From positions 24,784 through 88,783 of the forward strand of contig CADBBP010000001.1 in assembly GCA_902792855.1 (NCBI GenBank): a DNA stretch of 64,000 nucleotides. Direction: 5' to 3'. A program made the position numbers and the translations under genes. Positions 4,363 through 61,084 of this stretch are shown here, piece by piece; position 1 is the first letter of the stretch, and each line of letters begins with the position of its first letter. This DNA comes from an uncultured Prevotellaceae bacterium. GTDB taxonomy: Bacteria; Bacteroidota; Bacteroidia; Bacteroidales; Bacteroidaceae. The notes beneath the pieces are model-generated. The model ran no database searches. It was not told the DNA's origin and saw nothing but the letters and a program-made list of their open reading frames with translations.

Positions 4363-4434
4363 ACTATAGACACTATAGACACTATTAATACTATAGAAAC
4401 TATAAACACTACATGCACTATATCCACCATAAAA
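4363..4434. repeat. tandem array of 8 units with a 9-bp period (consensus CACTATAGA)
   Basis: The units are cactataga cactataga cactattaa tactataga aactataaa cactacatg cactatatc caccataaa. The array lies in the divergent intergenic region between tRNA-Phe(-) and the porin gene(+). Confidence 0.85.
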
Positions 4435-13696: not shown

Positions 13697-13777
13697 GGCC
13701 CCAAAGTCCCTAAAGACCTTAAAATCCCTAAAGACCTTAAGGACCTTAAAGACCTTAAAGACCCTAAAGCCCCTATA
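13697..13777. repeat. tandem array of 9 units with a 9-bp period (consensus GACCTTAAA)
   Basis: The units are ggccccaaa gtccctaaa gaccttaaa atccctaaa gaccttaag gaccttaaa gaccttaaa gaccctaaa gcccctata. The array begins at the nucleotide after the trkH stop codon. It has the same unit and orientation as 1717..1788. Confidence 0.9.
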
Positions 13778-16448: not shown

Positions 16449-16466
16449 ACATCAACACACTTGATT

Positions 16467-21100: not shown

Positions 21101-24100
21101 GAGGCACCTTCTACACCATCACTCCGAAATACGACGGAAAGATGACCGTCGCCGTCGTGCTCAACAGCGACAAGGACTTCTTCGTCCTGGAGAACGGCAC
21201 AGCCCTGCCCGAATACGACGCATACAGGGCAACGGAGAAATACTACGGAACGTTCGACTTCGACGTGAAGGGCGGCAGCAGCTACAAGATTTACTGCGCC
21301 GGCTCCAAGCTCGGCTTCTACGGCTTCAACTACAGCGGCTCTATCCCGTCGGATGAAATCTACATCGAGACCGACCTCACCAGCCAGTTTGCTTCCCTCA
21401 CCGAGTACACCAACTGGGTGGGTGCCAGCGGCTACGCCACATGGGCGGCTCCACAGGTGACCACCAATGCCGGACAGACCGTCTATATGTGCGAGCGATA
21501 TGACACCAACTGCGAGACCACCGGAGACGTGTTCTACCAGAACCTCACCGGCCTCACACCCGGCACCTACAAGATTGAACTCTACGGCTCGGCTGCCTTT
21601 ACCTTCGGACGTGGCATCCGTTCCGATGCCTTCGCTGACGACGACACACCTGAAGGCCCGCTGACAGAGAATACCGGCATCAAGCTCTACGCACAAACCA
21701 GCGAGGGCGTCGTGGAGCAGGAAATCGCCGCTTACAAGGCCACCTCGTTCTCCGAGGTTTCCACCGCCGTGCTCGACGGCGTGGTAGTGGGCGAAGATGG
21801 TGCCATGAAGCTCGGCATGAGCAAGAACACCAAAGCCACCAACTGGCACATCGTACAGCTGAAGGGCGTCACCGCCAAGGTGCTGGCCTCCGAACTCTTT
21901 GCAACCTACATCGCACAGGCTCAAGCCCTCTTGGGCGAGCCGATGAACGGCGAGACCCTCGCACAGTTGCAGGCCGCCATGGTGGACAACAGCGGCTTCA
22001 CCACCGCTGAGCAATATGAGCAGGCCATCGCCAAGCTTGACGAGGCCATCGCCGAAGCCAACAAATCAATAGCAGCCTACAAGAACGTGAAGGACGCTCT
22101 CGACACCTACGCTGCGAAGGCTGCCCTGCTCGACGCCGACGGCCAGGCCGCATACGACGTCGCTGCCATCCAGAAAGCTTACGACGAGCGCACACTGACC
22201 GACGACAGCGTCACGGCTGAAATCGCTGCCAAGTACATCGCTGCAGTGAAGCAGCAGACCACTCCGGGCTCCGACTACACCGACGCAGGAAGCAAGGCCC
22301 AGAGCGCATGGATTGGCTCCACAGGGGTTTACCAAGGTGACTATGCAGAGCGCTTCGGTGAGGAGATGCCCGCCGACACCATCATGCACCAGACCATCAG
22401 CGGCCTGAAGGAAGGCACCTACAAGGTGGAACTCTACGCCGTGGCAAGCCAGGCTTGGAACAGCGCTGCTGTGGGCAACGACATCACCGTGGCTTACGCC
22501 AACGATGGCATCTACCCGCTTGAGGTCATCGCCCAGGTGGCTTGCGACCCCACGGCATCCGTCGCCACGATGGAAGCCAACGTTGGCAGCGACGGCTTGC
22601 TCGACATGGGCATGCGCAACATCGCTGCAGGTGGCAACTGGTTCGTCATCCAGCTCAAGTCCATCTCGCTCGTGAGCCTGGTGCCCTCCGTAGGAGAGGC
22701 CATCACACTCGACATCGAGAGCGGCAAGGACATCACCACCGAGTTGGCAGCGGCCATGGAAAACAACCCCAAGCCAGCGGCCATCAACATCAACCTCGCT
22801 GCTGGTGGTGAATACACCGTCAGCGGAACCATCGAGACGGCTGCACCGCTCACCATCTCGGGTGACGAGAACAGCATCGCAACCATCGACGCCTCAGCCC
22901 TCAATGCACCGCTGACAGCCATCAGCACCACTCCGTATGAGAGCACGCTCAACGCCGCCAACAACTTCTACGGCATCGGCGACATCGCCTTCAAGAACCT
23001 GAAGGTGAAGGGCCTCAAACAACAGCTCATCTTTGGTAACAAGGTACGCGCACTGATTGACAACCTGATTGTTGACAACTGCATCATCGAAATTGCCGGT
23101 GGCAGCAAGACAACCTTCGATTTCAACGGAGGCGGCGTCGTTGGCCTATTTACGGTGAACAACTCCACCATCTACGGCAACCCGCAGCACACAGGCCAGC
23201 TCTACAGCTCGCAAAGCGGACAGAAGGCCACGGAGGTGAGCGAAGACTTCATTCAGAAGTTCTCTTTCACCAGCAGCACCTTCTTCAACTTCTCCTACGG
23301 CAAGAACGTCACCTCTCACCGCCAGAGCAACCAGAAATGGCTGAGCTACGAACTGACCAACTGCCTCGTGGTGGACTGCGGAAAGGACGGCCAGTTTGTC
23401 AAGGGCCTCAACGGAGGACAAGGAGGCGCCAACCCCACTTGGAGCATCTTCGGCAACTCCTTCCAGCGCATTGTTGACGGCGCATTCACCGACATCAGTG
23501 CCAATGAGAGCACCGGCGACGACGATGAGCCTGTGGTCAACAGCCTGGAAGGCGTGGTGGTCTTCGCCGGCGACTACGCCAACGGCGACTTCACCTTGGG
23601 CAGTTGCCCGCAAAGCGAAGCCTTGATCGGCGACCCGCGCTGGCTGAGCATCGACCACACCCTCGTACTCAACGTGGAGAGTGGCAAGGACATCACCACC
23701 GAGTTGGCAGCCGCCTTGGAGAACAATCCGAAACCGACGGCCATCAACATCAACCTTGCCGCCGACGGCCAATACACCGTCAGCGGAACCATCGAGACGG
23801 CGGCACCGCTCACCATCTCTGGCGACGAAAGCAGCATCGCCACCATCGACGCGGCAGCCCTCAGCGCACCACTGGCAGCCATCAGCACCACCCCGTATGA
23901 GAGCACGCTCAACGCCAACAACAACTTCTATGAAATTGGCAACATCACCTTCCAGAACGTGAAGGTGAAGGGCCTCGCCCAACCGCTCATCTACGGCAAC
24001 AAGGTGCGCGCATTCATAGAGAACCTGCTTGTTGAAAACTGCGTCATCGAGATTGCCGGCGGCAGCAAGACGACCTTCGACTTCAACGGAGGAGGCGTGG

Positions 24101-25728
24101 TGGGACACCTCACGGTGAACAACTCCACCATCTACGCCAACCCGCAACACACCGGCCAGCTTTACAGCTCGCAGAGCGGGCAGAAGGCTACGGAGGTGAG
24201 CGAAGACTTCATTCAGAAGTTCACCTTCACCAACTGCACCTTCTACAACTTCTCCTACGGGAAGAACGTCACATCCCATCGCCAGAGCAACCAGAAATGG
24301 CTGAGCTATGAGATGAGCGGCTGCATCGTGGTGGACTGCGGCAAGGACGGTCAGTTCGTCAAGGGTCTCAACGGTGGACAAGGCGGCCCCAACCCCATCT
24401 GGGACATCAACGGCAACTCCTTCCAACGCATTGTTGACGGCAAGTTCACCGACATCAGCGCCAACGAGAGCACCGGCGACGACGAGGAGCCCGTGGAGAA
24501 CAACGTGGAAGGCGTGGTGGCCTTTGCCGGAGACTATGCCAACGGCGACTTCACCTTGGGTTATTGCGTACAGGATATCTTGGGCATAGGAGACCCGAGG
24601 TGGCTAAGTGGCACCAATTACTATAACTTCGTGGCCAGCGAATGGATTGCCGGCGACCCGGGACGCATCAGCCCCGACCAAGTAAGCGTCAATGAGGAGG
24701 AGAACACCATCACGGTGAGCCAGACGGGACAGAACAACGTGAATCTGCTCTTCCGCTCTCAGAACGTCTATACCGTGCCGGCAGAAGCCCGTTACTTCAT
24801 CATCACCGCCAAAGGTCTTTCCACCAACGACGGCGACAGTTATCTCTGGTGGCTGAACAACACCAACGACGGAGGACAGTACAAGCCCACTGCCATCTAT
24901 GAGGAGGACGGAGAGACCGTCTTCGCATGGGATGCCAACCTCCTTCCCATCGGCGGCAACCTCGGCTTCGAAACAACGGAGTTCAAGGACGACGGCGGAT
25001 GGAGCACCACCTTTGGTATGACACTGGCCGACCCGGCCGTGCCGGCAGTCATCAGCTACATCGGCTTCACCAACAACATCGAGCAACCGACGGAGGAGGC
25101 TGAGTATGCATGGGACGCCACACTTTGGGTGGCCGGCGACCCGGGACGCATCTCACCCGACAAGGTGGTGGTGGACGAGACGGCCAACACCATCACGGTG
25201 AGCCAGACGGGCGACAACAACGTGGCATTGCTCTATCAGACCGACAAGGTGCTCTACGTGAACAACGCGAAGTACTTCGTCATCCAGGGCAAGGGGCTCT
25301 CCATCGCTGCCACCAAGTCTTACCTCTGGTGGCTGAACAACACGAACAACGGCAGCCAGGTGGAACCCAACATCGCTGTTGAGGACCAGGACGGCACCGT
25401 CACCCTCGTGTGGACCATCGCCGACACCGGCCTGGGAGCTTCCTTCGAGACGGAGACAGGCAAGACCTACCTCGTGGGCAACGCCGGATGGAACACCACC
25501 TTCGGCCTCACCTTGGCCGATGAGAACGTGCCAGCCGTCATCAGCTACATCGGCTATGAGACAACCAACTCCGACATCGTGAAACATGCGGAGGAACTCA
25601 CAGGCATCGTCAACGTGACCATCGACGTGGCCAACGGCGACATCTACGACCTCATGGGCCGCAAGGTGCTCACACCGCGCAAGGGCAACGTCTATATCCA
25701 AAACGGAAAGAAGTTTGTCGTGAAATAA
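18127..25728 (+). CDS. giant (2533 aa) multidomain T9SS-sorted cell-surface protein
   Basis: It has a signal peptide, FN3-like segments (for example NLKATMIAGGNVTLAWES...YEAQVRA) and an Ala-rich helical segment. Two 320-aa beta-helix-like modules end in GDPRWLS, and two 161-aa modules follow. The C-terminal tail is IYDLMGRKVLTPRKGNVYIQNGKKFVVK. Confidence 0.85.
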   Translation: MKKTLWLFLGFMLSMMGVQAQVMPSYSFVSSSGTYEEISGGTVLATAALAGDDFDGKVFGAEGTAVSSSGAVAGIDIGFTFKYNNQDMTKFVVYTNGAIQLGTGDINVNPSGYYNNYANTENYLGMSDIRGVTNNDATEVSYKVEGSAPNRVLVVQWKNVSNKTTHWGDDDFITSNHQVRLNEADCSVQVVFGAFTPSETVSGGVNFKVGVGGGSDNLLLTTGTWAEPVSSTNDVSAINTGKGSLPANGQTFTFNVPPPCTAPVAQPTGLVLSATSTQFTGEFTASASADHYLVLCSDAPITATPADGVTYAEGTELGGAIVVTYTEKTSFESPDGLSGSTKYYVAVFAANSRCMNGPSYLLAAPLTGETSTLPAAPAGLTAEATGVSTVKLSFQGNASGDKVLVAQTNMAAINDYDQMLEYGAFGLPSGDLAVGSEIAGGGKVVFIGTPGEAITLEGLAENNAWFFRAWSVDANGNCSTTYTDAATATGGTVPYEPDLSQFSPYNYESLPGWNDTGAFYIQEDTEGNKFIECNPSPVDTDHGTEVFTNTPWVTLGEGTNRVLFDLNMVNPGRWGMTNPYAWNEDDVMLIQASEDGENFTTLYTVNDNNAPVFASTTDRLHYGIKFDQFAGKTVRLRIYFKIFSPMRAQFFNFAVEQVKAVDYPANLKATMIAGGNVTLAWESNNDPAETDWEVRYKKSDESEWSEPVAVSGEPTVVLAGLAGLTNYEAQVRAKKGDQESDWTKSYFFTTGLAIPFEDTFAEGNTAGWTPMHGVLTEAGGPLEDEGAWRYNNWGRAMVYAPYEVPADDWLISPTIDLGDGSKSYSICYDIMHSYGQGEAQGVKYQIVVSRDNGATWSTNDVVATFSGDDIPAAATESTIYSANLQGITGPVKVGFYIHIEGGDPDQLRMRKISVVENAAPEGGEFTVTYAVQEGDAHASGETVSVTANGKEVATLTFGEEGGADFTAASADSHVDGFVAYTPGNGVNGNKAGGTFYTITPKYDGKMTVAVVLNSDKDFFVLENGTALPEYDAYRATEKYYGTFDFDVKGGSSYKIYCAGSKLGFYGFNYSGSIPSDEIYIETDLTSQFASLTEYTNWVGASGYATWAAPQVTTNAGQTVYMCERYDTNCETTGDVFYQNLTGLTPGTYKIELYGSAAFTFGRGIRSDAFADDDTPEGPLTENTGIKLYAQTSEGVVEQEIAAYKATSFSEVSTAVLDGVVVGEDGAMKLGMSKNTKATNWHIVQLKGVTAKVLASELFATYIAQAQALLGEPMNGETLAQLQAAMVDNSGFTTAEQYEQAIAKLDEAIAEANKSIAAYKNVKDALDTYAAKAALLDADGQAAYDVAAIQKAYDERTLTDDSVTAEIAAKYIAAVKQQTTPGSDYTDAGSKAQSAWIGSTGVYQGDYAERFGEEMPADTIMHQTISGLKEGTYKVELYAVASQAWNSAAVGNDITVAYANDGIYPLEVIAQVACDPTASVATMEANVGSDGLLDMGMRNIAAGGNWFVIQLKSISLVSLVPSVGEAITLDIESGKDITTELAAAMENNPKPAAININLAAGGEYTVSGTIETAAPLTISGDENSIATIDASALNAPLTAISTTPYESTLNAANNFYGIGDIAFKNLKVKGLKQQLIFGNKVRALIDNLIVDNCIIEIAGGSKTTFDFNGGGVVGLFTVNNSTIYGNPQHTGQLYSSQSGQKATEVSEDFIQKFSFTSSTFFNFSYGKNVTSHRQSNQKWLSYELTNCLVVDCGKDGQFVKGLNGGQGGANPTWSIFGNSFQRIVDGAFTDISANESTGDDDEPVVNSLEGVVVFAGDYANGDFTLGSCPQSEALIGDPRWLSIDHTLVLNVESGKDITTELAAALENNPKPTAININLAADGQYTVSGTIETAAPLTISGDESSIATIDAAALSAPLAAISTTPYESTLNANNNFYEIGNITFQNVKVKGLAQPLIYGNKVRAFIENLLVENCVIEIAGGSKTTFDFNGGGVVGHLTVNNSTIYANPQHTGQLYSSQSGQKATEVSEDFIQKFTFTNCTFYNFSYGKNVTSHRQSNQKWLSYEMSGCIVVDCGKDGQFVKGLNGGQGGPNPIWDINGNSFQRIVDGKFTDISANESTGDDEEPVENNVEGVVAFAGDYANGDFTLGYCVQDILGIGDPRWLSGTNYYNFVASEWIAGDPGRISPDQVSVNEEENTITVSQTGQNNVNLLFRSQNVYTVPAEARYFIITAKGLSTNDGDSYLWWLNNTNDGGQYKPTAIYEEDGETVFAWDANLLPIGGNLGFETTEFKDDGGWSTTFGMTLADPAVPAVISYIGFTNNIEQPTEEAEYAWDATLWVAGDPGRISPDKVVVDETANTITVSQTGDNNVALLYQTDKVLYVNNAKYFVIQGKGLSIAATKSYLWWLNNTNNGSQVEPNIAVEDQDGTVTLVWTIADTGLGASFETETGKTYLVGNAGWNTTFGLTLADENVPAVISYIGYETTNSDIVKHAEELTGIVNVTIDVANGDIYDLMGRKVLTPRKGNVYIQNGKKFVVK
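22717..24636 (+). repeat. in-frame tandem duplication of 2 x 960 bp (320 aa) within the giant gene
   Basis: The copies start at 22717 and 23677 (ESGKDITTELAAA(M/L)ENNPKP...). Most residues are identical by eye through to GDPRWLS. Confidence 0.9.
24640..25565 (+). repeat. in-frame tandem duplication of about 2 x 483 bp (161 aa) within the giant gene
   Basis: EWIAGDPGRISPDQVSVNEEENTITVSQTG... is repeated as LWVAGDPGRISPDKVVVDETANTITVSQTG.... Both copies end in PAVISYIG. Confidence 0.85.
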
Positions 25729-26381: not shown

Positions 26382-28073
26382 ATGAACATAACAATGAGAA
26401 AAAATGTGATTTTGGTCGCTCTCTTGGCGATGAGCGGGGGGGCGATGGCGCAAGGGTCGTGGGAAGATTTAATATCCGAGCCGGAAATGATTGACAACAT
26501 CAACAAACAGATTACAATCTCCAAAGAGGGAGAACTCGCCTGGATTGCCTATCAGGTAAACGAGGGGGAATCGGACTTCGATGGATACACAATCACCTTA
26601 AACAAAGACCTTGACTTCGTGGGTCACATCTGGAAACCAATAGGATATGGGGATGAACTCGACGACGGTAATAGCTTCAAGGGTACTTTCAACGGAAAAG
26701 ACGAAGAAGGGAACATCCATACCATCAAACACCTCGACGTCAAGAATGGTTGTGGCGTCGGCTTGTTTGGATATATATACAATGCCACCATCAAAAACCT
26801 CATTCTTGAGGATTGCCACTTCACCGGCGAATACAACGTGGGAGCCATCGTGGGCAACAATGGCGGCAGCACATACGGCAGCAACAATCCCAACGTGGGC
26901 ATCTACAACTGCCATGTGGGAAGCGGGGTCACTGTCACTGCCAAAGGTGAAAATGAGGATGACGGATTAAATGCCGGAGGAATTATCGGGTGCCTGTCTT
27001 CCATCACCGTCAGTAATTGCACGTCAGCCGCAACGGTGAAAGGTGTAACTTGCGTGGGGGGGATTGCAGGTCTTCTCCTTGGTGAAATCATTGATGGCAA
27101 ACAGTGTGGTGAAATAGATGACTGCTACTACCTCGGATATGATATCCAGGCATCTGATGAAGACTTGGGAGAATATGGTACTATCGTGGGGGCTCGGGGA
27201 TATCCCGACCCTGATACGGAAGGTGCTATCCAGAAGGGTACAGAAGGACGCATTCACATCACACTCTTCGACAATGATGTGAACAACAATGACATCATTA
27301 TCAATAACAACAGCCTCAATAACGAGCAACGCATCTTTTATTATTTGGACATGAAGGATATAAGTATTACCATACAGGGGCGCACCCTGTACAGGGACGG
27401 CTCATGGAATACGCTCTGCCTGCCTTTCTCACCTATTCCCGGAACCACGACTCCTCTTGAGGAAGGCAACCCCGTCGTACAGGAATTGGAAGAATCTACA
27501 TACGACGAAGAAACAAATACTTTGAATCTCGTTTTCAAGGAGTTGACGAATGGTATTCATGACATGTCGCCACGTTATCCATACATCGTGAAGTGGAATG
27601 CGGGGACTCCCCTCGAAAATCCTACTTTCAACCATGTGGTCATGGTGGGAAGCGACGTCTCCGAGCCTAATGATGTGGAGCAGGACAATGTCTCCTTCTG
27701 TGGCATATACACCACTATCGACATCTTCACCACCGAGAAGACCAACCTCTATCTTGGCTACGACAGCAATGAAAAAACGTCAAAACTCTACTATCCATGG
27801 GGAAATGAAATGGAGTACTTCTATATCAACTCCTTCCGTGCCTATTTCAAACTCATCGGCCTCACGGCTGACCAAACCAGTTCCTCCAATGGCATCAACA
27901 ATTTCGTGCTGAACTTCGGAGGCGAAAGCACTGGCATCAAGGAGATTTCAAATCCCATATCCCATGCCTCCAATTCCTCGGAATGGTTTTCTCTTGACGG
28001 AAGAAAATGGGACAGCAAGCCCAAGGCCAAGGGCATCTACGTCAACAATGGCCAAAAGGTGGTCATCAAATAA
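26382..28073 (+). CDS. GLUG-motif surface protein with a WNT-x-x-LPF domain and a T9SS C-terminal sorting domain
   Basis: It has a signal peptide and the GLUG-like repeats VGAIVGNNGG, AGGIIGCLSS and VGGIAGLLLG. It also has RTLYRDGSWNTLCLPF and NSFRAYFKL. The C-terminal tail is WFSLDGRKWDSKPKAKGIYVNNGQKVVIK. The start could instead be 26394. Confidence 0.75.
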   Translation: MNITMRKNVILVALLAMSGGAMAQGSWEDLISEPEMIDNINKQITISKEGELAWIAYQVNEGESDFDGYTITLNKDLDFVGHIWKPIGYGDELDDGNSFKGTFNGKDEEGNIHTIKHLDVKNGCGVGLFGYIYNATIKNLILEDCHFTGEYNVGAIVGNNGGSTYGSNNPNVGIYNCHVGSGVTVTAKGENEDDGLNAGGIIGCLSSITVSNCTSAATVKGVTCVGGIAGLLLGEIIDGKQCGEIDDCYYLGYDIQASDEDLGEYGTIVGARGYPDPDTEGAIQKGTEGRIHITLFDNDVNNNDIIINNNSLNNEQRIFYYLDMKDISITIQGRTLYRDGSWNTLCLPFSPIPGTTTPLEEGNPVVQELEESTYDEETNTLNLVFKELTNGIHDMSPRYPYIVKWNAGTPLENPTFNHVVMVGSDVSEPNDVEQDNVSFCGIYTTIDIFTTEKTNLYLGYDSNEKTSKLYYPWGNEMEYFYINSFRAYFKLIGLTADQTSSSNGINNFVLNFGGESTGIKEISNPISHASNSSEWFSLDGRKWDSKPKAKGIYVNNGQKVVIK

Positions 28074-51548: not shown

Positions 51549-53297
51549 ATGCACTTTAAATGGAATTACGAACCACCTACACCAGACGAGAAGAAAGCAG
51601 CTGACGAGCTGGCCGAGAAGATAGGCATGAACCCTGTCCTCGCATCGCTCCTCATCAGGCGTGGCATCACCACCGAGTCGGCGGCCAAGCGCTTTTTCCG
51701 CCCGCAATTGGCCGACCTCATCAATCCCTACCTCATGAAGGACATGGACGTCGCCGTGGACCGGCTGAACGACGCCATGGGCCGCAAGGAGAGGATATTG
51801 GTATATGGCGACTACGACGTGGACGGATGCACGGCGGTAGCCTTGGTGTACAAGTTTCTTCAGCAATTCTACTCCAACATCGACTACTACATTCCCGACC
51901 GCTATGACGAGGGCTACGGCATCAGCAAGAAGGGGTTGGAGTATGCGAAGGAAACCGGTGTAAAACTCATCATCATCCTCGACTGCGGCATCAAGGCCAT
52001 CGAGGAGATAGCCAATGCCAAGCGTCTTGGCATCGATTTCATCATTTGCGACCATCACGTTCCCGACGAAGTGATGCCAGATGCCGTGGCCATCCTCAAC
52101 CCGAAGAGGCAGGATGACACCTACCCTTTCAAGCATTTGTGCGGTTGCGGCGTGGGATTCAAGTTCATGCAGGCTTTCGCCAAGAACAACGACATCCCCT
52201 TTTCACGCCTCATCCCCCTTCTCGACTTCTGTGCCGTGAGCATCGCCGCCGACATCGTCCCGGTGACAGAGGAGAACCGCATCCTCGCCTTCCACGGCCT
52301 GAAACAACTCAACCAGAACCCGAGCATCGGCCTGAAGGCCATCATCGACATCTGCGGCCTCAGCGGCCGTGAGATATCGATGAGCGACATCGTGTTCAAG
52401 ATTGGCCCCCGCATCAACGCCTCCGGACGTATGGAGAACGGCAAGGAGAGCGTGGACCTGCTCATCGAGCGCGACTTTGGCACCGCCCTGCGCAAGGCGC
52501 GCCACATCAACCATTACAACGAGCAGCGCAAGGACATCGACAAGCAGATGACGGAGGAGGCCAACCAGATTGTGGCAAAGCTGGAGAGCCAGAAACATCA
52601 GTCGAGCATCGTGCTCTACGACGAGAACTGGAAGAAGGGCGTGATAGGCATCGTGGCGTCGCGACTGACAGAAATCTACTTCCGCCCCACGGTGGTGCTC
52701 ACCCGCGACGGCGCCTTGGCCACCGGCTCCGCCCGCAGCGTCGCCGGCTTCGACGTCTATTCCGCCGTCAAGCACTGCCGCGACCTTCTCCTCAACTTCG
52801 GTGGTCACACCTACGCCGCCGGCCTGACCTTGCGATGGAGCGACATCAAATCCTTCCGTGAGAAGTTCCAGCATTACGTGGAAGAGCACATCACCCCGGA
52901 ACAGACGGAGGCCATCCTCAACATCGACGCCATGATCGACTTCCGCGACATCTCCTCCAAGCGTCTTTACAACGACTTGAAACGCTTCGCCCCCTTCGGA
53001 CCCGGCAATGAAAAGCCCCTCTTCTGCACCGTCGGCGTTTATGACTTCGGCACGAGCAAGGTGGTGGGCCGCGACCAGGAGCACATCAAGCTGGAGTTGG
53101 TTGACTCGAAGTCGAGCCATGTGATGAACGGCATCGCCTTCGGCCAGAGTGCAGCCGCCCGCTACATCAAGTCCAAGCGAAGCTTCGACATCGTCTATAC
53201 CATCGAGGAGAACATCTACAAACACGGCACCGTGCAACTGCAGATAGAGGACATCCGCCAGACGGAGGAGGAGCCATCCGAAGCAAAGCAACCATAA
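51549..53297 (+). CDS. recJ: single-stranded-DNA-specific exonuclease RecJ
   Basis: It has DHH motifs (VYGDYDVDGCT, ILDCG, ICDHH) and a DHHA1 region (GGHTYAAG). The protein is 582 aa. Confidence 0.9.
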   Translation: MHFKWNYEPPTPDEKKAADELAEKIGMNPVLASLLIRRGITTESAAKRFFRPQLADLINPYLMKDMDVAVDRLNDAMGRKERILVYGDYDVDGCTAVALVYKFLQQFYSNIDYYIPDRYDEGYGISKKGLEYAKETGVKLIIILDCGIKAIEEIANAKRLGIDFIICDHHVPDEVMPDAVAILNPKRQDDTYPFKHLCGCGVGFKFMQAFAKNNDIPFSRLIPLLDFCAVSIAADIVPVTEENRILAFHGLKQLNQNPSIGLKAIIDICGLSGREISMSDIVFKIGPRINASGRMENGKESVDLLIERDFGTALRKARHINHYNEQRKDIDKQMTEEANQIVAKLESQKHQSSIVLYDENWKKGVIGIVASRLTEIYFRPTVVLTRDGALATGSARSVAGFDVYSAVKHCRDLLLNFGGHTYAAGLTLRWSDIKSFREKFQHYVEEHITPEQTEAILNIDAMIDFRDISSKRLYNDLKRFAPFGPGNEKPLFCTVGVYDFGTSKVVGRDQEHIKLELVDSKSSHVMNGIAFGQSAAARYIKSKRSFDIVYTIEENIYKHGTVQLQIEDIRQTEEEPSEAKQP

Positions 53298-53304
53298 CCC
53301 GGCG

Positions 53305-55187
53305 GTGGTGGACAAGTACCGTGCTACCCTGCGCAAGTACTGGGGCTACGACGACTTCCGCGGCATCCAGCGCGAGATCATCGAGAGCATCGACAGCGGC
53401 CACGACACGCTGGGCCTCATGCCCACGGGTGGCGGCAAAAGCATCACCTTCCAGGTGCCTGCGATGCTCCACGAGGGTGTCTGCTTGGTGGTGACACCCC
53501 TCATCGCATTGATGAAGGACCAGGTGAGCCACCTTCGTGCGAAAGGCATCCTGGCCTCCGCCATCTATTCCGGCATGAGCCACCAGGAGATTGTCACGAC
53601 GCTCGACAACGCCGTCTTCGGTGGTGTGGACATCCTTTATGTCTCGCCCGAGCGCCTGGCTTCCGAACTTTTCCTTATCAAGCTCCGCCACATGCGGGTG
53701 AGTTTCATCACCGTCGATGAGGCCCACTGCATCAGCCAGTGGGGCTACGACTTCCGCCCCTCCTACCTCCGCATCGCCGACATCCGCCACATCAAGCCGG
53801 AGGCCCCGGTGCTGGCCCTGACGGCCACCGCCACCCCCCAGGTGGTGGACGACATCCAGGAACGCTTGGCTTTCAAGGAGAAGCGCGTGTTCCGCATGAG
53901 CTTCGAGCGCAAGAACTTGGCATACGTCGTTCGGCAAACCACCGACAAGCAAGCAGAGTTGCTCCACATCCTCTCCTCCGTTCCCGGCAGTGCCATCGTC
54001 TATGCCCGCAGCCGCAAGCGCACGAAGGACACGTCGGAATGGCTCAACGCTTGCGGAGTGAGCGCCACCTTCTACCACGCCGGACTGGAGAGCGGTGTGA
54101 AAGACCAGCGCCAGAAGGAGTGGCAGGCGGGCAAGGTGCGCGTGATGGTGGCCACCAATGCCTTTGGCATGGGCATCGACAAACCCGATGTACGCATGGT
54201 GGCACACATCGACTGCCCGGACTCCCTGGAGGCTTATTTCCAAGAGGCCGGCCGTGCTGGTCGCGATGGGAAGAAGGCTTACGCCGTGCTGCTCTACAAC
54301 TCTTCCGACAAGCGAAAGTTGACGAAGCGCATCAGCGACACCTTCCCCACAAAGGAGTATGTCCGAGAGGTTTACGACCACCTGGCCGATTTCTTCCAGA
54401 TGGGCGTAGGCGGCGGCGAAGGCACCACGCATGAGTTTGACATCGACAAGTTCTGCCGCAATTTCCACCATTTCCCCGTCCATGTGGACGCCGCACTGAA
54501 AATCCTCCAGCGTGCCGGCTACCTGGAATATGATGCCGACCCGGACAACAACGCCCGTTTGCGCTTCATGCTCGCACGCGACCAACTCTACCTCTTGGAG
54601 AACACCTCGCCCACAGAGGAGCGGGTGATTGACGCCCTGCTGCGCCTCTACGGCGGCCTTTTCTCCGACTACTGCTTCATCGACGAGAGTGCCGTGGCCT
54701 ACAAAGCCGGCATAGACAGCAGCACCGTCTATATGACGCTCAAGGGGTTGGGCAAGCGCCGCATCGTGCATTTCATCCCCCGTCGCCAGATGCCCGCCAT
54801 CTACTACACGCAGCGGCGCGAGGATGGGCACCGTCTCATGCTCACCCGCGACGTGTATGAGGACCGCAAGGAAAGCTACGAGGCACGCATCGGCAGCATG
54901 GTGGACTATGCCACCAACGACAGCGTGTGCCGCGATATTTCGGTGAGACGCGCTCCACCGACTGCGGGCAGTGCGACGTCTGTCTGACCCATACCCCACC
55001 GCCCGGTGCCGAACAAGCGGTAAATAGTGCGAGAGAGCGCATTCTCCAATTACTTGCCGACCACCAACGCCACCACATCGCCGAGCTACACGGCTTGCAG
55101 CTGCCCCGCCAACAACTCGACACCGCACTGCAAGGCCTCCTCCACGAGGAGCAGATACACATTTCGGGGGCATTCATAACAAGATGA
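53305..55187 (+). pseudogene. recQ: RecQ-family DNA helicase, reading frame broken at the Zn-binding motif (near 54931-54936)
   Basis: It has FRGIQREII, MPTGGGKS, VDEAHCISQWGYDFRP, ATNAFGMGIDKPDVR and the QEAGRAGRDG helicase motifs. The first frame ends at 54987 after ...NDSVCRDISV. The expected continuation RYFGETRSTDCGQCDVCL plus about 70 more residues sits in the -1 frame up to 55187. The putative start is a GTG. Confidence 0.8.
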
Positions 55188-55797
55188 AGAAACTCGTTAG
55201 AATCTGACACTAAATAAAAAATACGACCTGCGGTTGATGATTGACGCTGAAAGCGTCACCACTCAGTAACACTGTCCGTAGGACCTGCGGAATCACAATG
55301 GCAAAGATGTGCACTCTGAAAAAGTGACTGTAGATAACCTCATAGGTCGAAAAAAATGGAAAAATATCCCTCGCCAAAGGCAAATTCCTTTGGTATTTGC
55401 TCCTTATTAAAACTAAAGGGATTTTCATCCGTACAGGTCGAATTTTGTTGTAATATTGCCCCTCCCGCCTCGGTTGCTTGAAGTAGGGTATGCATCCAAA
55501 AATCCTATGACCATCCTCAAGGTGAATAATAGGGATTGATTCAAGTTGTTTCAAGCAAGTTAGCCGAAACAGTATTTGGGAAAGAGGCTGGAAACGATTG
55601 AGATTAGAATAGACATTTCTCACCGTGAGAAATCAATATCGACTACAAAAATACACTTTTTTGTCGGAATTGCCAACTATTTTGATTGAAAACCTACGAA
55701 ATTTTGACAAATTGTTTCTTGCTTGTCATTTTGATATAAATACCATTATTCATTCTTTACTCATTCCCTCATTCATACCAGTAAAAAAATGAGGTTA

Positions 55798-55817
55798 TGC
55801 TAAACATTGTTTAGCAA
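55798..55817. repeat. left copy of a 20-bp inverted repeat, itself nearly palindromic
   Basis: The sequence tgctaaacattgtttagcaa is the exact reverse complement of 55899..55918. Confidence 0.9.
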
Positions 55818-55822
55818 GAAGT

Positions 55823-55867
55823 CACCTTGAAAAATGCATTTGTCTATTTTTCAAGGTGTGTTTTTTC
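55823..55867 (+). terminator. strong intrinsic terminator lying between the two inverted repeats
   Basis: A perfect 13-bp stem, caccttgaaaaat/atttttcaaggtg, is followed by tgtttttt. No annotated gene lies directly upstream. Confidence 0.6.
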
Positions 55868-55898
55868 GTATTCATCTCTCCCGAAGAGAATGAGAGAT

Positions 55899-55918
55899 TT
55901 GCTAAACAATGTTTAGCA
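55899..55918. repeat. right copy of the 20-bp inverted repeat
   Basis: The sequence ttgctaaacaatgtttagca is the exact reverse complement of 55798..55817. The centres are about 101 bp apart. Confidence 0.9.
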
Positions 55919-55988
55919 AAAAAGCATGATGACATCTATAAGGCTTTTGCCCTGTCGGGGCGCAATCTACTCCGTTATTTACCATTTA

Positions 55989-56062
55989 CCCAGGGCGTTG
56001 CCCTGGGCTGATATCTCGTTGGCCTTGCAGGCCGCCTTTGCACAAAAAACCATCCGCAAAGG
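55989..56062. other. cluster of three consecutive GC-rich hairpins in an AT-rich gap
   Basis: The hairpins are cccagggc-gtt-gccctggg (55989-56007), ggcc-ttgca-ggcc (56021-56033) and cctttgc-N14-gcaaagg (56035-56062). Confidence 0.5.
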
Positions 56063-56166
56063 ACAAAAAATAACCCGTAAGACACATTCAAAAGCATACC
56101 GAGTTGATTAACGCCAAGAACCAGCACCCAATGAAAGGGAACATTGGCTGTTGTCACTTATAGATG

Positions 56167-56209
56167 AAAAAGGCCGGAAGGTGTGCTTCACTGCACACGC
56201 CTTCCGGCC
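56167..56209 (-). terminator. intrinsic terminator ending the minus-strand operon
   Basis: The arms ggccggaaggtgtgc and gcacacgccttccggcc pair with one bulge. On the minus strand the hairpin is followed by ttttt. Confidence 0.7.
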
Positions 56210-56240
56210 ATCTTTGTTGTCTATCAAAAGTGTTGTGATG

Positions 56241-56456
56241 TTAGTCTTTTGGTTCTGTCATCATAACGCACTCCATCTGGTTGTATTTTATCACATAACC
56301 GCCGCGCTCCCAGTGGAGCAGCTTCATCAGCGTACGACTGTGGTTGAGGAACACGTACACGTTGCCGTCCGAAGGCTTCCTGCCCAATGCTGGGTCAGTC
56401 AGGCCGCACAAGGGGAGGAATCCTTTGCGGAGGTCTATATGGGAACTGTAAACCAA
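56241..56456 (-). mobile_element. IS66-family accessory protein TnpB (Orf2)-like remnant
   Basis: HIDLRKGF...GLTDPALGRKPSDGNVYVFLNHSRTLMKLLHWERGGYVIKYNQME matches the D-M/L-RKGF ... P..G..FVF.N.R....K.L.W...G......KRLE pattern of IS66 Orf2. It has no ATG, is truncated at the C-terminus, and has no adjacent transposase or IS ends. Confidence 0.6.
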
Positions 56457-56488
56457 GAAGTGGTTGGTCTGGAAATTGTGTTTGTTGT

Positions 56489-59400
56489 TTATTTGATGGC
56501 TACTTTCTTGCCATTGTTGATATAAACGCCTGGCCTGTTGGGTAGGCCGTTGATGCGGCGGCCGTCGAGGGTAAACCAGAGAGGTTTGAGGTTTGAGGTT
56601 TGAGGTTTGAGGTTTTGGATTTCCTCATTGCCAGTTTCTCCACCATTGAAGTTGAGTACGAATGCACTGACCATTGAAGTCTTGTCACCAGCATGGAGTT
56701 CGTCGGCCAGTTGGAAGTAACCACGGAAAGCGTTGGCAAACGACACGGCCTCACCATTGGGATAATAGAGTTTGTTGTCTGCCCCCATGAGCAGGATGCT
56801 CCGATTTTGTCTTCCTTCCTCATAGACAACGGGGGCGTAAGTTCCCTTGAATGTGATGTAGTCGGTCGCCTCGTCTATTAATTCCGCTGTCAGCACCGTC
56901 ACATCCTCAAACACCGGGTCAACCGTATTTTCTCCTTTATCCCACCATCTCACGATATATGGTTTTCCAGCCTTCACTTCCCATCCCTCGGGATCGGCAA
57001 AGTCAAGTGTCAGCGTCTTGGTAGCCAGGTTGAATGAAGATCCGGTCAGTTCCATGGCATCAGCCTGTCCGAAAGGCGAGGAGTATGTCATGGCCATGTC
57101 AAACGGCAGACAGATGGTGTTCCATCCCTTGTCTTTGTAGAATGTGCGTCCTTTGAGAGTGAAAGTATGCCTTGCATGGTAGATGAGAGAGTTCTCCGGG
57201 CGGTCGAAGTATTGGTTGCGGGTTATCAGCAGGTTCAGTGCGTCTGTATTGTCTCGGCCATCCACTGCCAAGGGTTCTGCCACCCCTTCCACATCGGTGC
57301 TTGAATAGCCGAGGTTTCCGTTCGGGCTGGTCTGCCCGATGCCGACTCCGAGGGATGTGTCGTATGGATGTGTATCATCGCCCCAATATGTTGACGGCAC
57401 ATCGTTGTCCACCACTACAGGTGCGTTATCATAGTAGTTGTTGCTGGCGTGGGCGGGGTATTCATTTCCGTCACGGTCGGTTGCCGCCCTGTTGTCGCCC
57501 GTGATGGATCCGAAATGACCGAGGGGGTCTGCGCCGCTGACGTGAATGCTACCGAAGAAAATGTTGTCGCTCATCGTCGCCTCTCTGACATTGGTGGTCA
57601 CATCACCCGTTTCCATGTTTATCAGCGACTGGGCGTATGTGGTGTTTCCGCCGCAGATGCCTCCGAAGTGCGAAACATTCTGGCAACCGTCGCCGTCGCT
57701 GATGGCTGTCTTGCTGACACTGCTGTTCTGAATGGTTCCTCCGAGATTGTTTCCGGTCACGCCTCCTACATATTCGGCATTGTCGGCCACGGCGGAAACT
57801 GAAGCCTCAACGATATGGCAATTCGTCACCGTTCCACGGTTTTCTCCTGCCACTACACCTACGTTTCTTGCTCCTGTCACAGTGGCTTCCTGTATGAACA
57901 AATCCTTCACCACCGCACCCTCAGGCAAAATGCTGAAGAGTCCAATGTAATCGTTGCTGTATTCATCAGGACTGTCGTTTAAGGACGCATTGATGCCTCT
58001 GATGTTCCTGCGGTTTCCATCAAAAGTGCCCTTGAAAATTTTGTTTATGTCCAACATAGCGATGCTTCCCACTGGTTCCCATCTGTGACCTGGCATGTAA
58101 AAGTCCTTGTCATCGGCAAGCTTCACCGTCCATCCTTCGAAGTTGTTTCCAAGCACGTTCACCTCGTAGGCAACCCTTGCCAACTCCTCTTCGCTGTGCA
58201 GGACGAGCAGCTTGTCCGTTTCCGATATGTCGGAGAAAGTTTCCGAACGATAGTAAATCCAGTTGTCGTTGGCGATGGCTATTCTTGAAGCAATTGCGAC
58301 GTAGATGTCGGCAGAGCCCATTGTAAGTGTCATGCCGTCGGACGTAGCATCGCCTGTATCTCCAAAGGAATAGGGAAGAATCATCAGTCCAAGTGGCTGT
58401 ACCCCTTCCGCAGAGGTTTCAGCGAGTTTCAGTGTGACTTCAAGATTCTGCGGTGCATAATAGACTCCATCGTAAAAGAGCACTCCGTTGTCGTATGCCG
58501 TGACACCTATATAATCGCCTTCTCCATAGACGGTCTTCTCATCATCGATTTCCACGTCTTCGGCAAGTATGATCTTGTGGGCCAGCAGGAAATTGTTGTT
58601 ATAGTCGCCGACGAGAGAATTGTCGGTGTAATAACTGTTGGGGGTGTAACCTGTTGTCACGAAAGTCCATCCGGCAATCGCACCTTCTGCACTGCCTCCC
58701 AAGTCTGTTCCCACACTCACATGGTCACCTAAATACAAACAGTGCTGGATGTTGGGCGTGCTGCGGTTGTTAGAACCAATAATTCCGCCAAATTCCTTGC
58801 ACGCATGATGGCCGTCATTGTCAATGTATGCGGCACTGACACACCCCCGGATGATACGGGGTGCGTCGGTGTTGACGTTAGTGCTGGGCTGATAACCTAC
58901 GATTCCACCAATGTAGTTCGTTCCATTCCATTGTTTGTAAGTGTTGTAGTATTCGCTCCATGCCGCCTTCAGGATCACGGTGGAAGTGGCGCGGCAGTTT
59001 TCGATGATGCCCAAGTTATAGCCGACGATACCGCCCGTATAATGTCCCGTGAAGGTGTTGGAGTCGCTGACAAGATTCTTGACAATGCCATTGGAGCCTA
59101 CGACACCGAATATGCCATTGTAACCGTTGCTACTACTATACGTGCTTCCAGATTTTCTTACATATATGCCGCTTATGCTATGCCCTTTGCCGTCAAACAC
59201 GCCATCAAACGGGTTATCATGTTTGCCGACAGGTGTGTAATTGTTTTCTGTCCCATCATATACCAAACTGGCTGTCAATTCCACATACTTGCCTTCATAA
59301 GAGTTTCCACTGTTGACTCTCGATGCCAAGTAGTCCATGTCATTGGTGTTATTGATGAGATAGGGGGCCTCTTCTGTTCCAGTTCCGTCAAGGGCATACA

Positions 59401-61084
59401 GGCTAACGTGGGTTTCTTGTCCCGGCATCTGAATGCTGTTTGTCCTCACACACTCGTCATTGACAACATACCATGCGTCCTGATTGGCGAATGTCAGAGA
59501 GGCAGTTTGTTTAGCATAGTAATTCCCATCAAAGAAAAGAATGTCATTATAGGATGTAATCCCCGGGAAGTCGCTTGTTCCGTATGTGCTTACTACGGTG
59601 TTCGTCAATGTCACACCTTCATCCATTGTGAGTGTGTATGCCTGTTGGGCTTCACCGTCAGTTAATGTAGGCTCTGTGTAGAAGCAGTTGCTTACATTTG
59701 CCAAGTAATTATCGGAAACCGCATACGCGTTGGTTCCGATGATGGATGCCCCCAGATAGATGCAGTCGGTCAGATCGGCCTTGTTATAACCAACCAGTCC
59801 CGCCACGCACTGTCCGTTTCCGGAGACTTGGGCGGCACTTGAGCATCCCGACAGGGAACCGCCGTTGGCCTTGCCTATCAGTCCTCCTGCGTTTGAGTAA
59901 ATACTTTCCTCGGACAAGCCTTTGACAGTCACGCTTGACTTGACATGACAGTTTCTGACAGTAACTGCGTCTTCCAAAATACCCAACAACGGTCCCACGC
60001 AATTGTCTGCTTGGAACGACGAGTTTTCGATACATATATTATCTATGGTGGAAAAGTTGGCACCTCCCATTACGCCGGCGTACGAACCGGTGGTTTGTAT
60101 GTGAATGTTGTCAAACTTGATGTTTTTCACGGTTCCCGTCACATAGGGAATGATTCCCACGTAATCCTTATCGGTCTTGATGTTGATGCCGCTTATCGTG
60201 TGTCCATTGCCGTCGAGCGAGCCGAAGAAGCTCTTCTCTTCAGAGCCGACAGGGGTGAAATTGTTTTCTTCCGTCTCGTCATACGCCAAGTCTGCCATCA
60301 GTTTCAAATAGAAATTACTTTCCTCGGTATTGTCAAGGGAAGTGCTGTTAATCATGGCGATGATGAAATCCAATTGCCACTTGTAGTATATTTCGTAAGG
60401 ATTGTCTGGGTCTGTCATGTCACTTTGTCCGACACTGCGCATGTCATCACCGATATCCTTGACGAAGTTGCAGTTCAGTCCACTTGGCAATGACGCACTC
60501 TTATAGACATGCACTTTGGTTGCCTTGTTGTCCTTGAACTCCCATGTGTTGTTCCAACTGATAGAAGAGATGTTGTTCTGGTAGAAATAGATGTCGGATA
60601 CCGCATCGCAGTAGGCAAAAGCGCCATAGTCGGAGTCGGTGGACCCCGGATGTCCCATCCTGGTGATGCTGCCACCAAGATAGATGGTTCTCAACTGGTC
60701 GCACCACAGGAATGCCGCCCCGCCGATGGTCTGCACCGATGCCGGGATGACGAGCTGTTGCACGGCGGTTTCCGCAAAGGCGTAGTCGCCGATGGACTGC
60801 AACCCGTTGGGGAGTGAGATAAAGGCAAGTTTTGGAAACTTAGCAAACGCATTGTTTCCTATGGATGTCACCCCGGATTTCACGACAACTGTCGTAATGT
60901 CGTCTTTACGACTGTACCAGGGGGTGTTTTCGCTAATGTCATAATCGGCCATCGCCCCCGTTCCAGAAATAGATAAAGTATGGGTTGTGCTGTTATAATC
61001 CCAATGGATGGCAGCATTTGTGTTCATCACATTCAGCATCGTCATGATGACGGTGGAAATGATGATTGAAAACGTTCTTTTCAT
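56489..61084 (-). CDS. 1531-aa BspA-type LRR + GLUG-repeat surface protein with a WNT-x-x-LPF domain and a T9SS C-terminal sorting domain
   Basis: It has a signal peptide and N-terminal LRR_5-like repeats (VTSIGNNAFAKF, LQSIGDYAFAE, VQTIGGAAFLWC). At least 9 GLUG-like motifs are present (AGGLIGKANGG, TGGIVGYNLG, IGGIVGYQPS, FGGIIGSNN, VGVVAGENRG, VGGVTGNNLGG ...). It also has RTFYKDKGWNTICLPF and NAFRGYFQL. The C-terminal tail is LWFTLDGRRINGLPNRPGVYINNGKKVAIK. Confidence 0.85.
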   Translation of the reverse strand: MKRTFSIIISTVIMTMLNVMNTNAAIHWDYNSTTHTLSISGTGAMADYDISENTPWYSRKDDITTVVVKSGVTSIGNNAFAKFPKLAFISLPNGLQSIGDYAFAETAVQQLVIPASVQTIGGAAFLWCDQLRTIYLGGSITRMGHPGSTDSDYGAFAYCDAVSDIYFYQNNISSISWNNTWEFKDNKATKVHVYKSASLPSGLNCNFVKDIGDDMRSVGQSDMTDPDNPYEIYYKWQLDFIIAMINSTSLDNTEESNFYLKLMADLAYDETEENNFTPVGSEEKSFFGSLDGNGHTISGINIKTDKDYVGIIPYVTGTVKNIKFDNIHIQTTGSYAGVMGGANFSTIDNICIENSSFQADNCVGPLLGILEDAVTVRNCHVKSSVTVKGLSEESIYSNAGGLIGKANGGSLSGCSSAAQVSGNGQCVAGLVGYNKADLTDCIYLGASIIGTNAYAVSDNYLANVSNCFYTEPTLTDGEAQQAYTLTMDEGVTLTNTVVSTYGTSDFPGITSYNDILFFDGNYYAKQTASLTFANQDAWYVVNDECVRTNSIQMPGQETHVSLYALDGTGTEEAPYLINNTNDMDYLASRVNSGNSYEGKYVELTASLVYDGTENNYTPVGKHDNPFDGVFDGKGHSISGIYVRKSGSTYSSSNGYNGIFGVVGSNGIVKNLVSDSNTFTGHYTGGIVGYNLGIIENCRATSTVILKAAWSEYYNTYKQWNGTNYIGGIVGYQPSTNVNTDAPRIIRGCVSAAYIDNDGHHACKEFGGIIGSNNRSTPNIQHCLYLGDHVSVGTDLGGSAEGAIAGWTFVTTGYTPNSYYTDNSLVGDYNNNFLLAHKIILAEDVEIDDEKTVYGEGDYIGVTAYDNGVLFYDGVYYAPQNLEVTLKLAETSAEGVQPLGLMILPYSFGDTGDATSDGMTLTMGSADIYVAIASRIAIANDNWIYYRSETFSDISETDKLLVLHSEEELARVAYEVNVLGNNFEGWTVKLADDKDFYMPGHRWEPVGSIAMLDINKIFKGTFDGNRRNIRGINASLNDSPDEYSNDYIGLFSILPEGAVVKDLFIQEATVTGARNVGVVAGENRGTVTNCHIVEASVSAVADNAEYVGGVTGNNLGGTIQNSSVSKTAISDGDGCQNVSHFGGICGGNTTYAQSLINMETGDVTTNVREATMSDNIFFGSIHVSGADPLGHFGSITGDNRAATDRDGNEYPAHASNNYYDNAPVVVDNDVPSTYWGDDTHPYDTSLGVGIGQTSPNGNLGYSSTDVEGVAEPLAVDGRDNTDALNLLITRNQYFDRPENSLIYHARHTFTLKGRTFYKDKGWNTICLPFDMAMTYSSPFGQADAMELTGSSFNLATKTLTLDFADPEGWEVKAGKPYIVRWWDKGENTVDPVFEDVTVLTAELIDEATDYITFKGTYAPVVYEEGRQNRSILLMGADNKLYYPNGEAVSFANAFRGYFQLADELHAGDKTSMVSAFVLNFNGGETGNEEIQNLKPQTSNLKPLWFTLDGRRINGLPNRPGVYINNGKKVAIK
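56581..56615 (-). repeat. heptanucleotide microsatellite, 5 x AAACCTC on the coding strand, inside the CDS
   Basis: The plus strand reads gaggttt x5 exactly. The repeat encodes NLKPQTSNLKP in the loop just before the last conserved strands of the T9SS sorting domain. Confidence 0.95.

Follow-up and report, generated by a model that had tools for sequence, protein, structure and literature searches.

The window analysed here, a stretch of 64,000 nt from an uncultured Prevotellaceae bacterium (contig CADBBP010000001.1; G+C content 53.9%), carries on its minus strand an open reading frame (ORF) for a large surface protein, close to the 3' end of which lies a perfect heptanucleotide microsatellite, (AAACCTC)x5. 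A first-pass annotation of this DNA had placed the repeat in a type IX secretion system (T9SS) sorting domain and proposed that it serves as a slipped-strand switch of surface display. Analysis of the protein, of its C-terminal tail and of rumen alleles of the gene points to a different reading, namely that the repeat is tolerated within the linker of a probable short-type T9SS export signal. The following features, all on the minus strand, make up the locus.

56489..61084, minus strand: ORF of 1531 aa, a BspA-type leucine-rich repeat (LRR) and GLUG-motif surface protein (ORF list, translation and Pfam)
61013..61084, minus strand: candidate N-terminal Sec-type signal peptide, MKRTFSIIISTVIMTMLNVMNTNA (inspection only)
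56492..56632, minus strand: predicted 'short' T9SS C-terminal signal, G1485-K1531, 47 aa, GNEEIQNLKPQTSNLKPLWFTLDGRRINGLPNRPGVYINNGKKVAIK (motifs, family consensus and AlphaFold2 (AF2) model)
56627..56638, minus strand: predicted PorU cleavage motif ET/GN (T/GI in the family), upstream of the repeat (alignments A1 and A2)
56581..56615, minus strand: heptamer microsatellite (AAACCTC)x5, encoding N1491-P1501 plus one base each of Q1490 and L1502
56555..56578, minus strand: Motif B-like WFTLDGRR, starting 3 bases past the repeat (conservation across homologues)
56492..56530, minus strand: Motif D/E-like GVYINNGKKVAIK, the last two predicted beta strands (conservation and AF2)
56500..56502, minus strand: TAG stop of the frame entered with 1, 4 or 7 units, closing a 26-aa nonsense tail from which Motifs B, D and E are gone (simulation)
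56241..56456, minus strand: IS66 TnpB-like remnant ORF of 71 aa (PF05717, E 4.7e-14; NCBIfam IS66_TnpB)

The 1531-aa protein was matched by the Pfam families LRR_5 (PF13306; E 1.7e-17, 63.9 bits versus a gathering cut-off of 27.7) and Glug (PF07581; E 6.6e-11, 42.3 bits versus a gathering cut-off of 20.5). By inspection of the translation, its first residues, MKRTFSIIISTVIMTMLNVMNTNA, comprise a basic N-terminus, a hydrophobic core and the sequence TNA-A, and look like a Sec-type signal peptide. The protein is identical to the representative (P0001) of a database cluster, one member of which, MBO4850093.1, is named 'leucine-rich repeat domain-containing protein [Prevotella sp.]'. The species-representative genome is RGIG8039, a metagenome-assembled genome (MAG) from water-buffalo rumen (contig L009), and other contigs originate from metagenomes of cattle rumen, among them the STEW19 assemblies.

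Tandem Repeats Finder reported the tract at 56581-56615 with period 7, 5.0 copies, 100% matches and 0 indels. On the coding (minus) strand its surroundings read ATCCA-(AAACCTC)x5-TCTGG, and a partial sixth unit is absent on both sides. The tandem array is perfect, lies within a reading frame and has a unit not divisible by 3, as expected of a repeat capable of phase variation. The tract starts at nucleotide 4470 of the coding sequence, 97% into the ORF and 30 residues ahead of the stop, and encodes NLKPQTSNLKP, after which the protein continues with LWFTLDGRRINGLPNRPGVYINNGKKVAIK. The array, its non-triplet unit and its peptide are thus exactly as first annotated, and so is the paralogue at 26382..28073, which at the equivalent position carries a non-repetitive loop (...TGIKEISNPISHASNSSEWFSLDGRK). 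In a census of perfect non-triplet simple-sequence repeats (SSRs) the tract was the only one in the 64 kb with at least 3 copies of a unit of at least 2 nt; the rest were A/T homopolymers of 8-10 bases only. Since the probability of a perfect 35-nt tract of period 7 is ~4^-28 per position, the tract did not arise by chance.

The consequences of changes in copy number were simulated for 0 to 10 heptamer units. With 2, 5 or 8 units the normal tail is retained. With 1, 4 or 7 units the tail becomes SGLPSTAAASTAYPTGQAFISTMARK and ends at the TAG at 56500-56502, and with 0, 3 or 6 units translation would run on for ~112 codons, in the frame of the IS66 TnpB-like remnant ORF, and terminate at 56241-56243. 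The simulation therefore reproduces both predictions of the first-pass annotation, that loss of one unit leads to early termination without the C-terminal domain (CTD) and that gain of one unit or loss of two opens a long frame through the remnant to 56241; a frameshift at the tract would indeed remove Motifs B, D and E. The proposal of a 'three-state' switch does not follow from this, because both out-of-frame outcomes merely lose these motifs, leaving two phenotypic states. Furthermore, the IS66 remnant (window 56241-56470) is absent from the buffalo-rumen MAG RGIG8039, where one additional unit adds only 14 residues. The remnant therefore represents a strain-variable insertion or deletion immediately after the stop codon, and the long read-through state is strain-specific rather than conserved.

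The tail encoded downstream of and around the tract resembles the 'short' CTDs, of which 48, 40-55 aa in length, have been described in Prevotella intermedia (Ye et al. 2025, Open Biol, PMC11969387). These share the cleavage consensus PT/GI, a Motif B composed of a Tyr (a conserved aromatic position), an absolutely conserved Gly and a basic residue, a Motif D of GxY followed by Ile, a Motif E consisting of a conserved basic residue (Lys/Arg), and just three predicted beta strands; 6-11 aa separate the cleavage motif from Motif B and 1-6 aa separate Motif B from Motif D (PMC11969387). For several of the P. intermedia proteins cleavage and C-terminal glycosylation have been shown experimentally, and the cargo includes LRR and pectate-lyase-fold proteins (PMC11969387). 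In Porphyromonas gingivalis, the last 22 residues of Hbp35, which contain Motifs D and E, are needed for secretion and attachment of green fluorescent protein, and mutation of Motif B blocked the secretion of RgpB (both summarised in PMC11969387).

In the window protein the corresponding elements are ET/GN ... WFTLDGRR ... GVYI ... KKVAIK, contained within 47 aa, with the Ile at position +2 replaced by Asn. They end the ORF, the N-terminus of which is Sec-like by inspection. Eighteen residues extend from G1485 up to W1503 (13 if counted after GNEEI) and 8 lie between GRR and GVY, the motif boundaries used by Ye et al. possibly differing from ours. The tail alignments yielded the family consensus xxNFGDxxxTGI-(spacer)-WYTLDGRRLxGKPTxxGxYINNGKKVVIK, with TGI conserved at the predicted cleavage column in both A1 and A2. 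Among 43 homologues (numbering of a model of the last 226 aa), G203, equivalent to G1508, is invariant and R204 nearly so; G214 and Y216 are also invariant, and N219, G220, K222 and K226 nearly invariant. The AF2 model of this region (mean predicted local distance difference test score (pLDDT) 90.2, predicted template modelling score 0.77) places strands at W198-F199, 214-218 and 221-225, plus a short one at 205-206, giving a predicted three-stranded sheet that follows a flexible linker holding the predicted cleavage site, with the pLDDT minimum within residues 181-200. Judged by its motifs and modelled fold, the tail is most likely a T9SS export signal of the short type; the protein would accordingly be T9SS-dependent, with cleavage predicted at ET/GN.

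The first-pass placement of the repeat in a T9SS sorting domain thus most probably stands, with the provision that the signal belongs to the short type and that the standard CTD models do not recognise it. The last 170 aa matched neither Pfam PF18962 nor NCBIfam TIGR04183 even at E<=10, which sets the 1531-aa protein apart from canonical CTD proteins as defined by these hidden Markov models (HMMs). When the 43 family members were scanned with Pfam, PF18962 was not among the 25 most-matched of 32 families (E<=1), and only P0156 had a sub-threshold match to it (E 0.31), at residues 62-83, outside the tail. Foldseek comparison of the AF2 model with the PDB returned nothing significant (best E 0.18), HBP35 appearing at rank 20 with an E of 2. 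When the tail alignment was used as a profile against the PDB, 4KCA (E 1.5e-9) and 7JVI (E 0.01) were the only matches, a P. gingivalis CTD being absent. The homologue search with the tail profile matched only unnamed fragments of <=100 aa, so that no 'T9SS' annotation occurs among the matches, and T9SS components were not recognised among the window ORFs scanned with Pfam and NCBIfam.

The tail is shared by six proteins of the window, which have putative signal peptides and end in ~30 residues of the form [WYF][YF]xLxGR[RK]..P..G[IVL]Y[IV]xNG[KQR]K..[IV][KRQ].

1866-2645 (minus), 14853-16448 (plus), 16461-18083 (plus), 18127-25728 (plus), 26382-28073 (plus) and 56489-61084 (minus): ORFs carrying the shared short tail

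In ORF 1866-2645 the spacing between Motifs B and D is longer, and its tail matches PF18962 weakly (E 0.017, below the gathering score). The tail profile matches 786 database proteins. The short type has so far been reported for P. intermedia only; these 786 matches, the six proteins in 64 kb and the crystallised rumen arabinanase 4KCA suggest that it is abundant in rumen Prevotella as well. Because the standard CTD models miss the short type, the annotation of T9SS cargo in Prevotella of gut and rumen is probably incomplete.

A separate observation concerns the nature of the C-terminal module. In P0004, an orthologue with 59% identity, and in the close fragment P0135 a dockerin type I module replaces the short tail, and window ORF 301-1710 (plus strand) has a weak dockerin-like match at its end (E 0.0013). 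Such sequences suggest that C-terminal modules are swapped between a T9SS signal and a dockerin.

Within the tail, the tract encodes the middle of the spacer that separates the predicted cleavage site (ET/GN) from Motif B (WFTLDGRR). Residues 190-193 (QTSN), which belong to the tract peptide, form the only segment of the AF2 model with a pLDDT below 50, and the segment is probably disordered. The sequence of the spacer is not conserved among orthologues (42-62% identity), distant paralogues or ~70 homologues; its length is mostly 16-18 residues where TGI could be located, and 18 in the window. Many homologue spacers are of low complexity or periodic, for example IENGKLKIEN, IDHSPLTIDHS and TNxTNxTN, and internal repeats of 7 residues are found in unrelated family members (IENGKLKIEN, IDHSPLTIDHS and NSQLSTLHSQLS, from homologues P0136-P0210). 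Tandem duplication therefore appears to be recurrent in the linker of this family, and the spacer can be regarded as a roughly length-constrained hotspot of low-complexity and tandem-repeat evolution. In the nearest orthologue, P0002, the spacer NNHPQTSDSNT is encoded by the degenerate series AAACAAC CACCCCC AAACCTC CGATTCC, which includes one perfect unit; consequently, either the PQTS core (CCTCAAACCTC) is older than the tract, or the array has degenerated in the P0002 lineage.

One homologue, P0171 (contig L022, ~1470-1530), has a frameshift in the spacer beside an imperfect 14-nt duplication, AATGAAGAAT..AATGAAGAAT. Its tail, WYTLDGRK...GMYIMNGRKVVIK, is intact as WYTLDGRKLDGKPTKKGMYIMNGRKVVIK and readable in another frame. 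The frameshift either represents a natural allele that has lost the tail or stems from misassembly of the Logan contig; its recovery indicates that tail-loss frameshifts are detectable by the approach used here.

In order to follow the tract across strains, we compared ten independent contigs from cattle and buffalo rumen (the window, L001, L002, L003, L004, L009, L012, L014, L015 and L016) at the nucleotide level and 15 of the 21 members of the protein cluster at the amino acid level. All of these alleles are consensus assemblies, which hide minority length variants. The window was counted as an independent sequence because 50 single-nucleotide polymorphisms (SNPs) and one indel separate it from L010/L001 over 11.8 kb. 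Exactly 35 nt lie between the flanks in all ten contigs. The tract is a pure x5 array in the window and five further contigs and is broken by point substitutions in the other four (5/15 alleles): AAGTCTC takes the place of unit 2 in L002, L015 and L016, and AAACCCC that of unit 4 in L003. Purity is therefore not a constant property of the tract. In all 15 cluster members that were read the tail is in frame and the tract encodes 11 residues, which are NLKPQTSNLKP in 10, NLKSQTSNLKP (P->S) in 3 and NLKPQTSNPKP (L->P) in 2.

Neither a copy-number polymorphism nor an OFF allele was found in the ten contigs or in the 15 cluster members read out of 21. Among seven full-length alleles 53 of 4596 sites are polymorphic (<=0.8% pairwise) and indels are absent; three of these 53 sites fall inside the 35-nt tract (8.6% versus 1.15% gene-wide). 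Exact look-ups of fragments with 2, 4, 6 and 8 units starting MGADNKLYYPNG found none, a weak negative as exact identity was required. Look-ups with the neighbouring genes (the TnpB remnant, the gene for a 547-aa protein and RecJ), by which adhesin alleles are found independently of the adhesin gene call, recovered further five-unit alleles, the gapped scaffold L017 and no frameshifted allele, several of the contigs ending before the tract. A metagenome scan added one conspecific contig with five units, as well as four distant paralogues, and a genome scan found the species-representative MAG only. The first-pass annotation had named as decisive against its own proposal that all related strains have exactly five units and no length polymorphism, and this is the outcome in the public sequences compared here, with a length of 35 nt throughout and substitutions in four of ten contigs. 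The tract thus evolves by substitution at fixed length, the opposite of what characterises a contingency locus.

We consider it probable (at about 0.75) that the repeat is an ordinary microsatellite of this lineage, accepted by the coding sequence within a variable and probably disordered linker that is discarded, and that it is held at five units and does not constitute a contingency locus. According to this explanation, the microsatellite sits in the low-confidence, sequence-variable spacer of a short-type T9SS signal on a rumen Prevotella BspA-like LRR/GLUG protein. The spacer would be part of the piece that is cleaved off and discarded, and for this reason its sequence would be barely constrained, its length being constrained. 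The tract may have been built by replication slippage or local duplication from a pre-existing PQTS core. Changes by one or two units would delete Motifs B, D and E and thereby abolish export, so that frameshifted alleles would be purged rather than used. Purifying selection on the downstream export motifs would hold the tract at five units while it decays by point substitution.

Several points weigh against this explanation. The allele survey leaves six of the 21 cluster members unread, and consensus assemblies mask minority length variants. The excess of SNPs in the tract amounts to three sites, two of them adjacent (binomial P ~0.008, or ~0.06 if the pair is counted as one event). Pure tracts are seen on more than one flanking haplotype (L009 versus the window), which is compatible with some homogenising slippage. 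Five perfect units also reach the lowest copy number at which PhasomeIt reports repeats of units of 4 bases or more, and some slippage is therefore to be expected. Finally, in the STEW19 scaffold L017 (~6250-6310; called protein 1544 aa) the tract is interrupted by an N10 gap and ~21 nt of unrelated sequence. The scaffold is compatible with five or more units and may reflect mixed alleles or read-level heterogeneity; on copy number the scaffold is uninformative, the assembly having broken at the repeat.

The best surviving alternative is a contingency locus operating at a low rate, in which slippage yields a minority of cells with an adhesin lacking Motifs B, D and E and hence neither exported nor anchored. 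The ON frame would then dominate in the rumen and consensus assemblies would always show five units. This reading draws on the perfect tract with its non-triplet unit and five copies, the PhasomeIt cut-off for units of at least 4 bases being five or more copies (PMC6321876), on the loss of the whole export signal upon frameshift, in line with the mutagenesis of Hbp35 and RgpB as summarised in PMC11969387, and on the nature of the product, since surface LRR proteins belong to a gene class that is usually phase-variable. The break of scaffold L017 within the tract and the presence of the pure tract on two flanking haplotypes would fit as well. However, length variants and OFF alleles are absent from the ten contigs and 15 alleles, and interrupted tracts persist in four of the contigs, implying that purity is not maintained. 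The heptanucleotide loci of Haemophilus influenzae, by comparison, vary between strains, with 13-38, 1-13 and 14 copies (PMC2651432). The position of the tract is also unfavourable: an OFF cell would make a 1500-aa protein for nothing, and, as phase-variation SSRs are enriched at N-termini and C-terminal SSRs have been explained by tolerance or relaxed constraint (PMC3315296), a location at 97% of the ORF argues against a tuned switch. The 64 kb contain no other candidate SSR, and our literature search found no phase variation by slipped-strand mispairing in Prevotella; nor did slipped-strand phase variation appear among the top results of broader searches on Bacteroidetes/Bacteroidota. Taken together, we regard a low-rate contingency locus as unlikely.

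Tracts at the PhasomeIt cut-off may mutate at rates below 1e-5, too slow for effective phase variation (PMC6321876). The more specific version in which a slow contingency locus leaves a few rumen cells with 4 or 6 units, the short T9SS signal lost and display switched off, appears to us improbable. Were it true, SSR-driven phase variation would be reported for Prevotella for the first time, and no earlier case would act by deleting a T9SS export signal rather than by early abortion of translation. It would also add slipped-strand phase variation to a phylum, the Bacteroidota, in which invertases dominate phase variation. As matters stand, the 35-nt length and ON frame found throughout, together with the interruptions in 4/10 contigs and 5/15 alleles, speak against the slipped-strand switch proposed at first; a role of the repeat as a switch is unlikely from these sequences, and because the comparative data make it so, the SSR is of modest interest.

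A second alternative is that selection acts on the peptide itself. The Pro/Gln/Thr/Ser-rich NLKPQTS-NLKP, with its period of 7 aa, would be favoured for the length or flexibility it gives the spacer during handling by PorV/PorU, and the DNA repeat would be a mere footprint of an in-frame 21-nt duplication. The narrow range of spacer lengths (16-18 residues, with 18 in the window) and the 7-residue repeats in the spacers of unrelated family members (IENGKLKIEN, IDHSPLTIDHS, NSQLSTLHSQLS) agree with this possibility, whereas the spacer sequence is otherwise unconserved and the tract accommodates both P->S and L->P. Moreover, a 21-nt duplication leaves unexplained why each 21-nt unit should consist of three perfect 7-nt units. 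We therefore think selection for this particular linker peptide improbable as well.

That the repeat or its copy number was created by short-read assembly is hardly credible and effectively refuted: the gap and junk sequence in the L017 tract might be taken as a sign of it, but ten independent assemblies, produced by different assemblers and studies (ENA k141 and k87, STEW19, JGI and an NCBI MAG), carry the same 35-nt region, with SNPs that are haplotype-consistent across them. Two further ideas, programmed ribosomal frameshifting and a function of the opposite-strand sequence GAGGTTT, were also considered and dropped, as no supporting feature was found for either.

Several further observations concern the surroundings of the adhesin gene. 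Compared with the sister contig L010, the recQ homologue (~53289-55187, plus strand) is short of 16 nt, GCAGCCGCCAACTGCT, at ~54931. Their absence frameshifts this RecQ-family helicase gene, of which other contigs have an intact copy (632-638 aa); the window copy either is a real pseudogene or results from an assembly error. Just past recQ there is a break in synteny (window ~55177-56280). RecJ is identical in contigs L023 and L024, but there recQ is followed by an AAA-ATPase/PDDEXK_9 gene instead of the adhesin side; this AAA-ATPase is only 89% identical to that of L012 and may be a paralogue. A segment of 113 nt (window 56168-56280) is repeated in L012 (2014-2126), upstream of a block composed of the Bmp, C13-peptidase, 547-aa and adhesin genes, and this block may be a variable island. 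In L011 (positions 1-2099; ERZ1045688 scaffold_2411) the adhesin block is bordered by a trio of neighbouring tyrosine-recombinase (Phage_integrase) genes. The trio lies upstream of the Bmp gene, beyond the end of the window, and is not found in L012, which points to a mobile or recombinase-trio element beside the adhesin locus.

Tandem arrays of another kind are present elsewhere in the window. These are imperfect, intergenic and have a 9-bp period (1715-1789, 13695-13775 and 4361-4422). Two of them share the unit TAAAGACCT and begin right after the stop codons of ORF 301-1710 and of the trkH-like ORF 12107-13696, and the third, with unit CACTATAGA, is located upstream of ORF 4598-5644.

Among known systems, the tail is closest to P. 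intermedia's short CTDs. As in those proteins, it occupies the extreme C-terminus of a protein with a putative signal peptide and LRR cargo, and its 47 aa fall within the range of 40-55; T/G(I), a Motif B of the form aromatic-x-x-x-G-basic, a Motif D of GxY-I, a basic Motif E and three predicted strands can all be traced. It differs in coming from a rumen Prevotella, in having Asn in place of the +2 Ile (TGN), and in the spacer between the predicted cleavage site and Motif B, which is ~13-18 residues long, depending on the boundaries chosen, compared with 6-11 in P. intermedia. With the canonical type A CTD (PF18962, TIGR04183) it shares the C-terminal position and Motifs B, D and E, recognisable by eye. 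Unlike that domain, it has no HMM match at E<=10, lacks the seven-strand sandwich and finds nothing significant with Foldseek.

The tract itself invites comparison with the heptanucleotide repeats of H. influenzae. These include (TGAAAGA)n in the promoters of hmw1A/hmw2A, the intragenic (AATTTTG)14 that strain PittAA has in hmw1a, and (AACAACC)n located at or within a gene for a TonB-dependent receptor; in the heptanucleotide SSRs accepted or proposed to be phase-variable, copy numbers differ between nearly all strains and frameshifted alleles are present (PMC2651432). The window tract resembles these loci in being a perfect tandem array of a 7-nt unit in the gene for a large surface adhesin, where intragenic copies shift the frame. 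The H. influenzae tracts, however, contain more units (mostly 6-38), and almost any two strains differ in copy number, whereas here five units are found throughout, no OFF allele was seen among those compared, SNPs interrupt the array in several strains and the position is at the extreme 3' end. In the last respect the tract resembles the coding SSRs analysed by Lin & Kussell 2012 (PMC3315296), with its location in the last 3% of the ORF and in a segment of low model confidence. The U-shaped density of SSRs along proteins was attributed in that study to biophysical tolerance and not to phase variation (PMC3315296). The present tract differs from those SSRs in that a frameshift would not be harmless, the last 30 residues of the protein carrying the predicted export signal.

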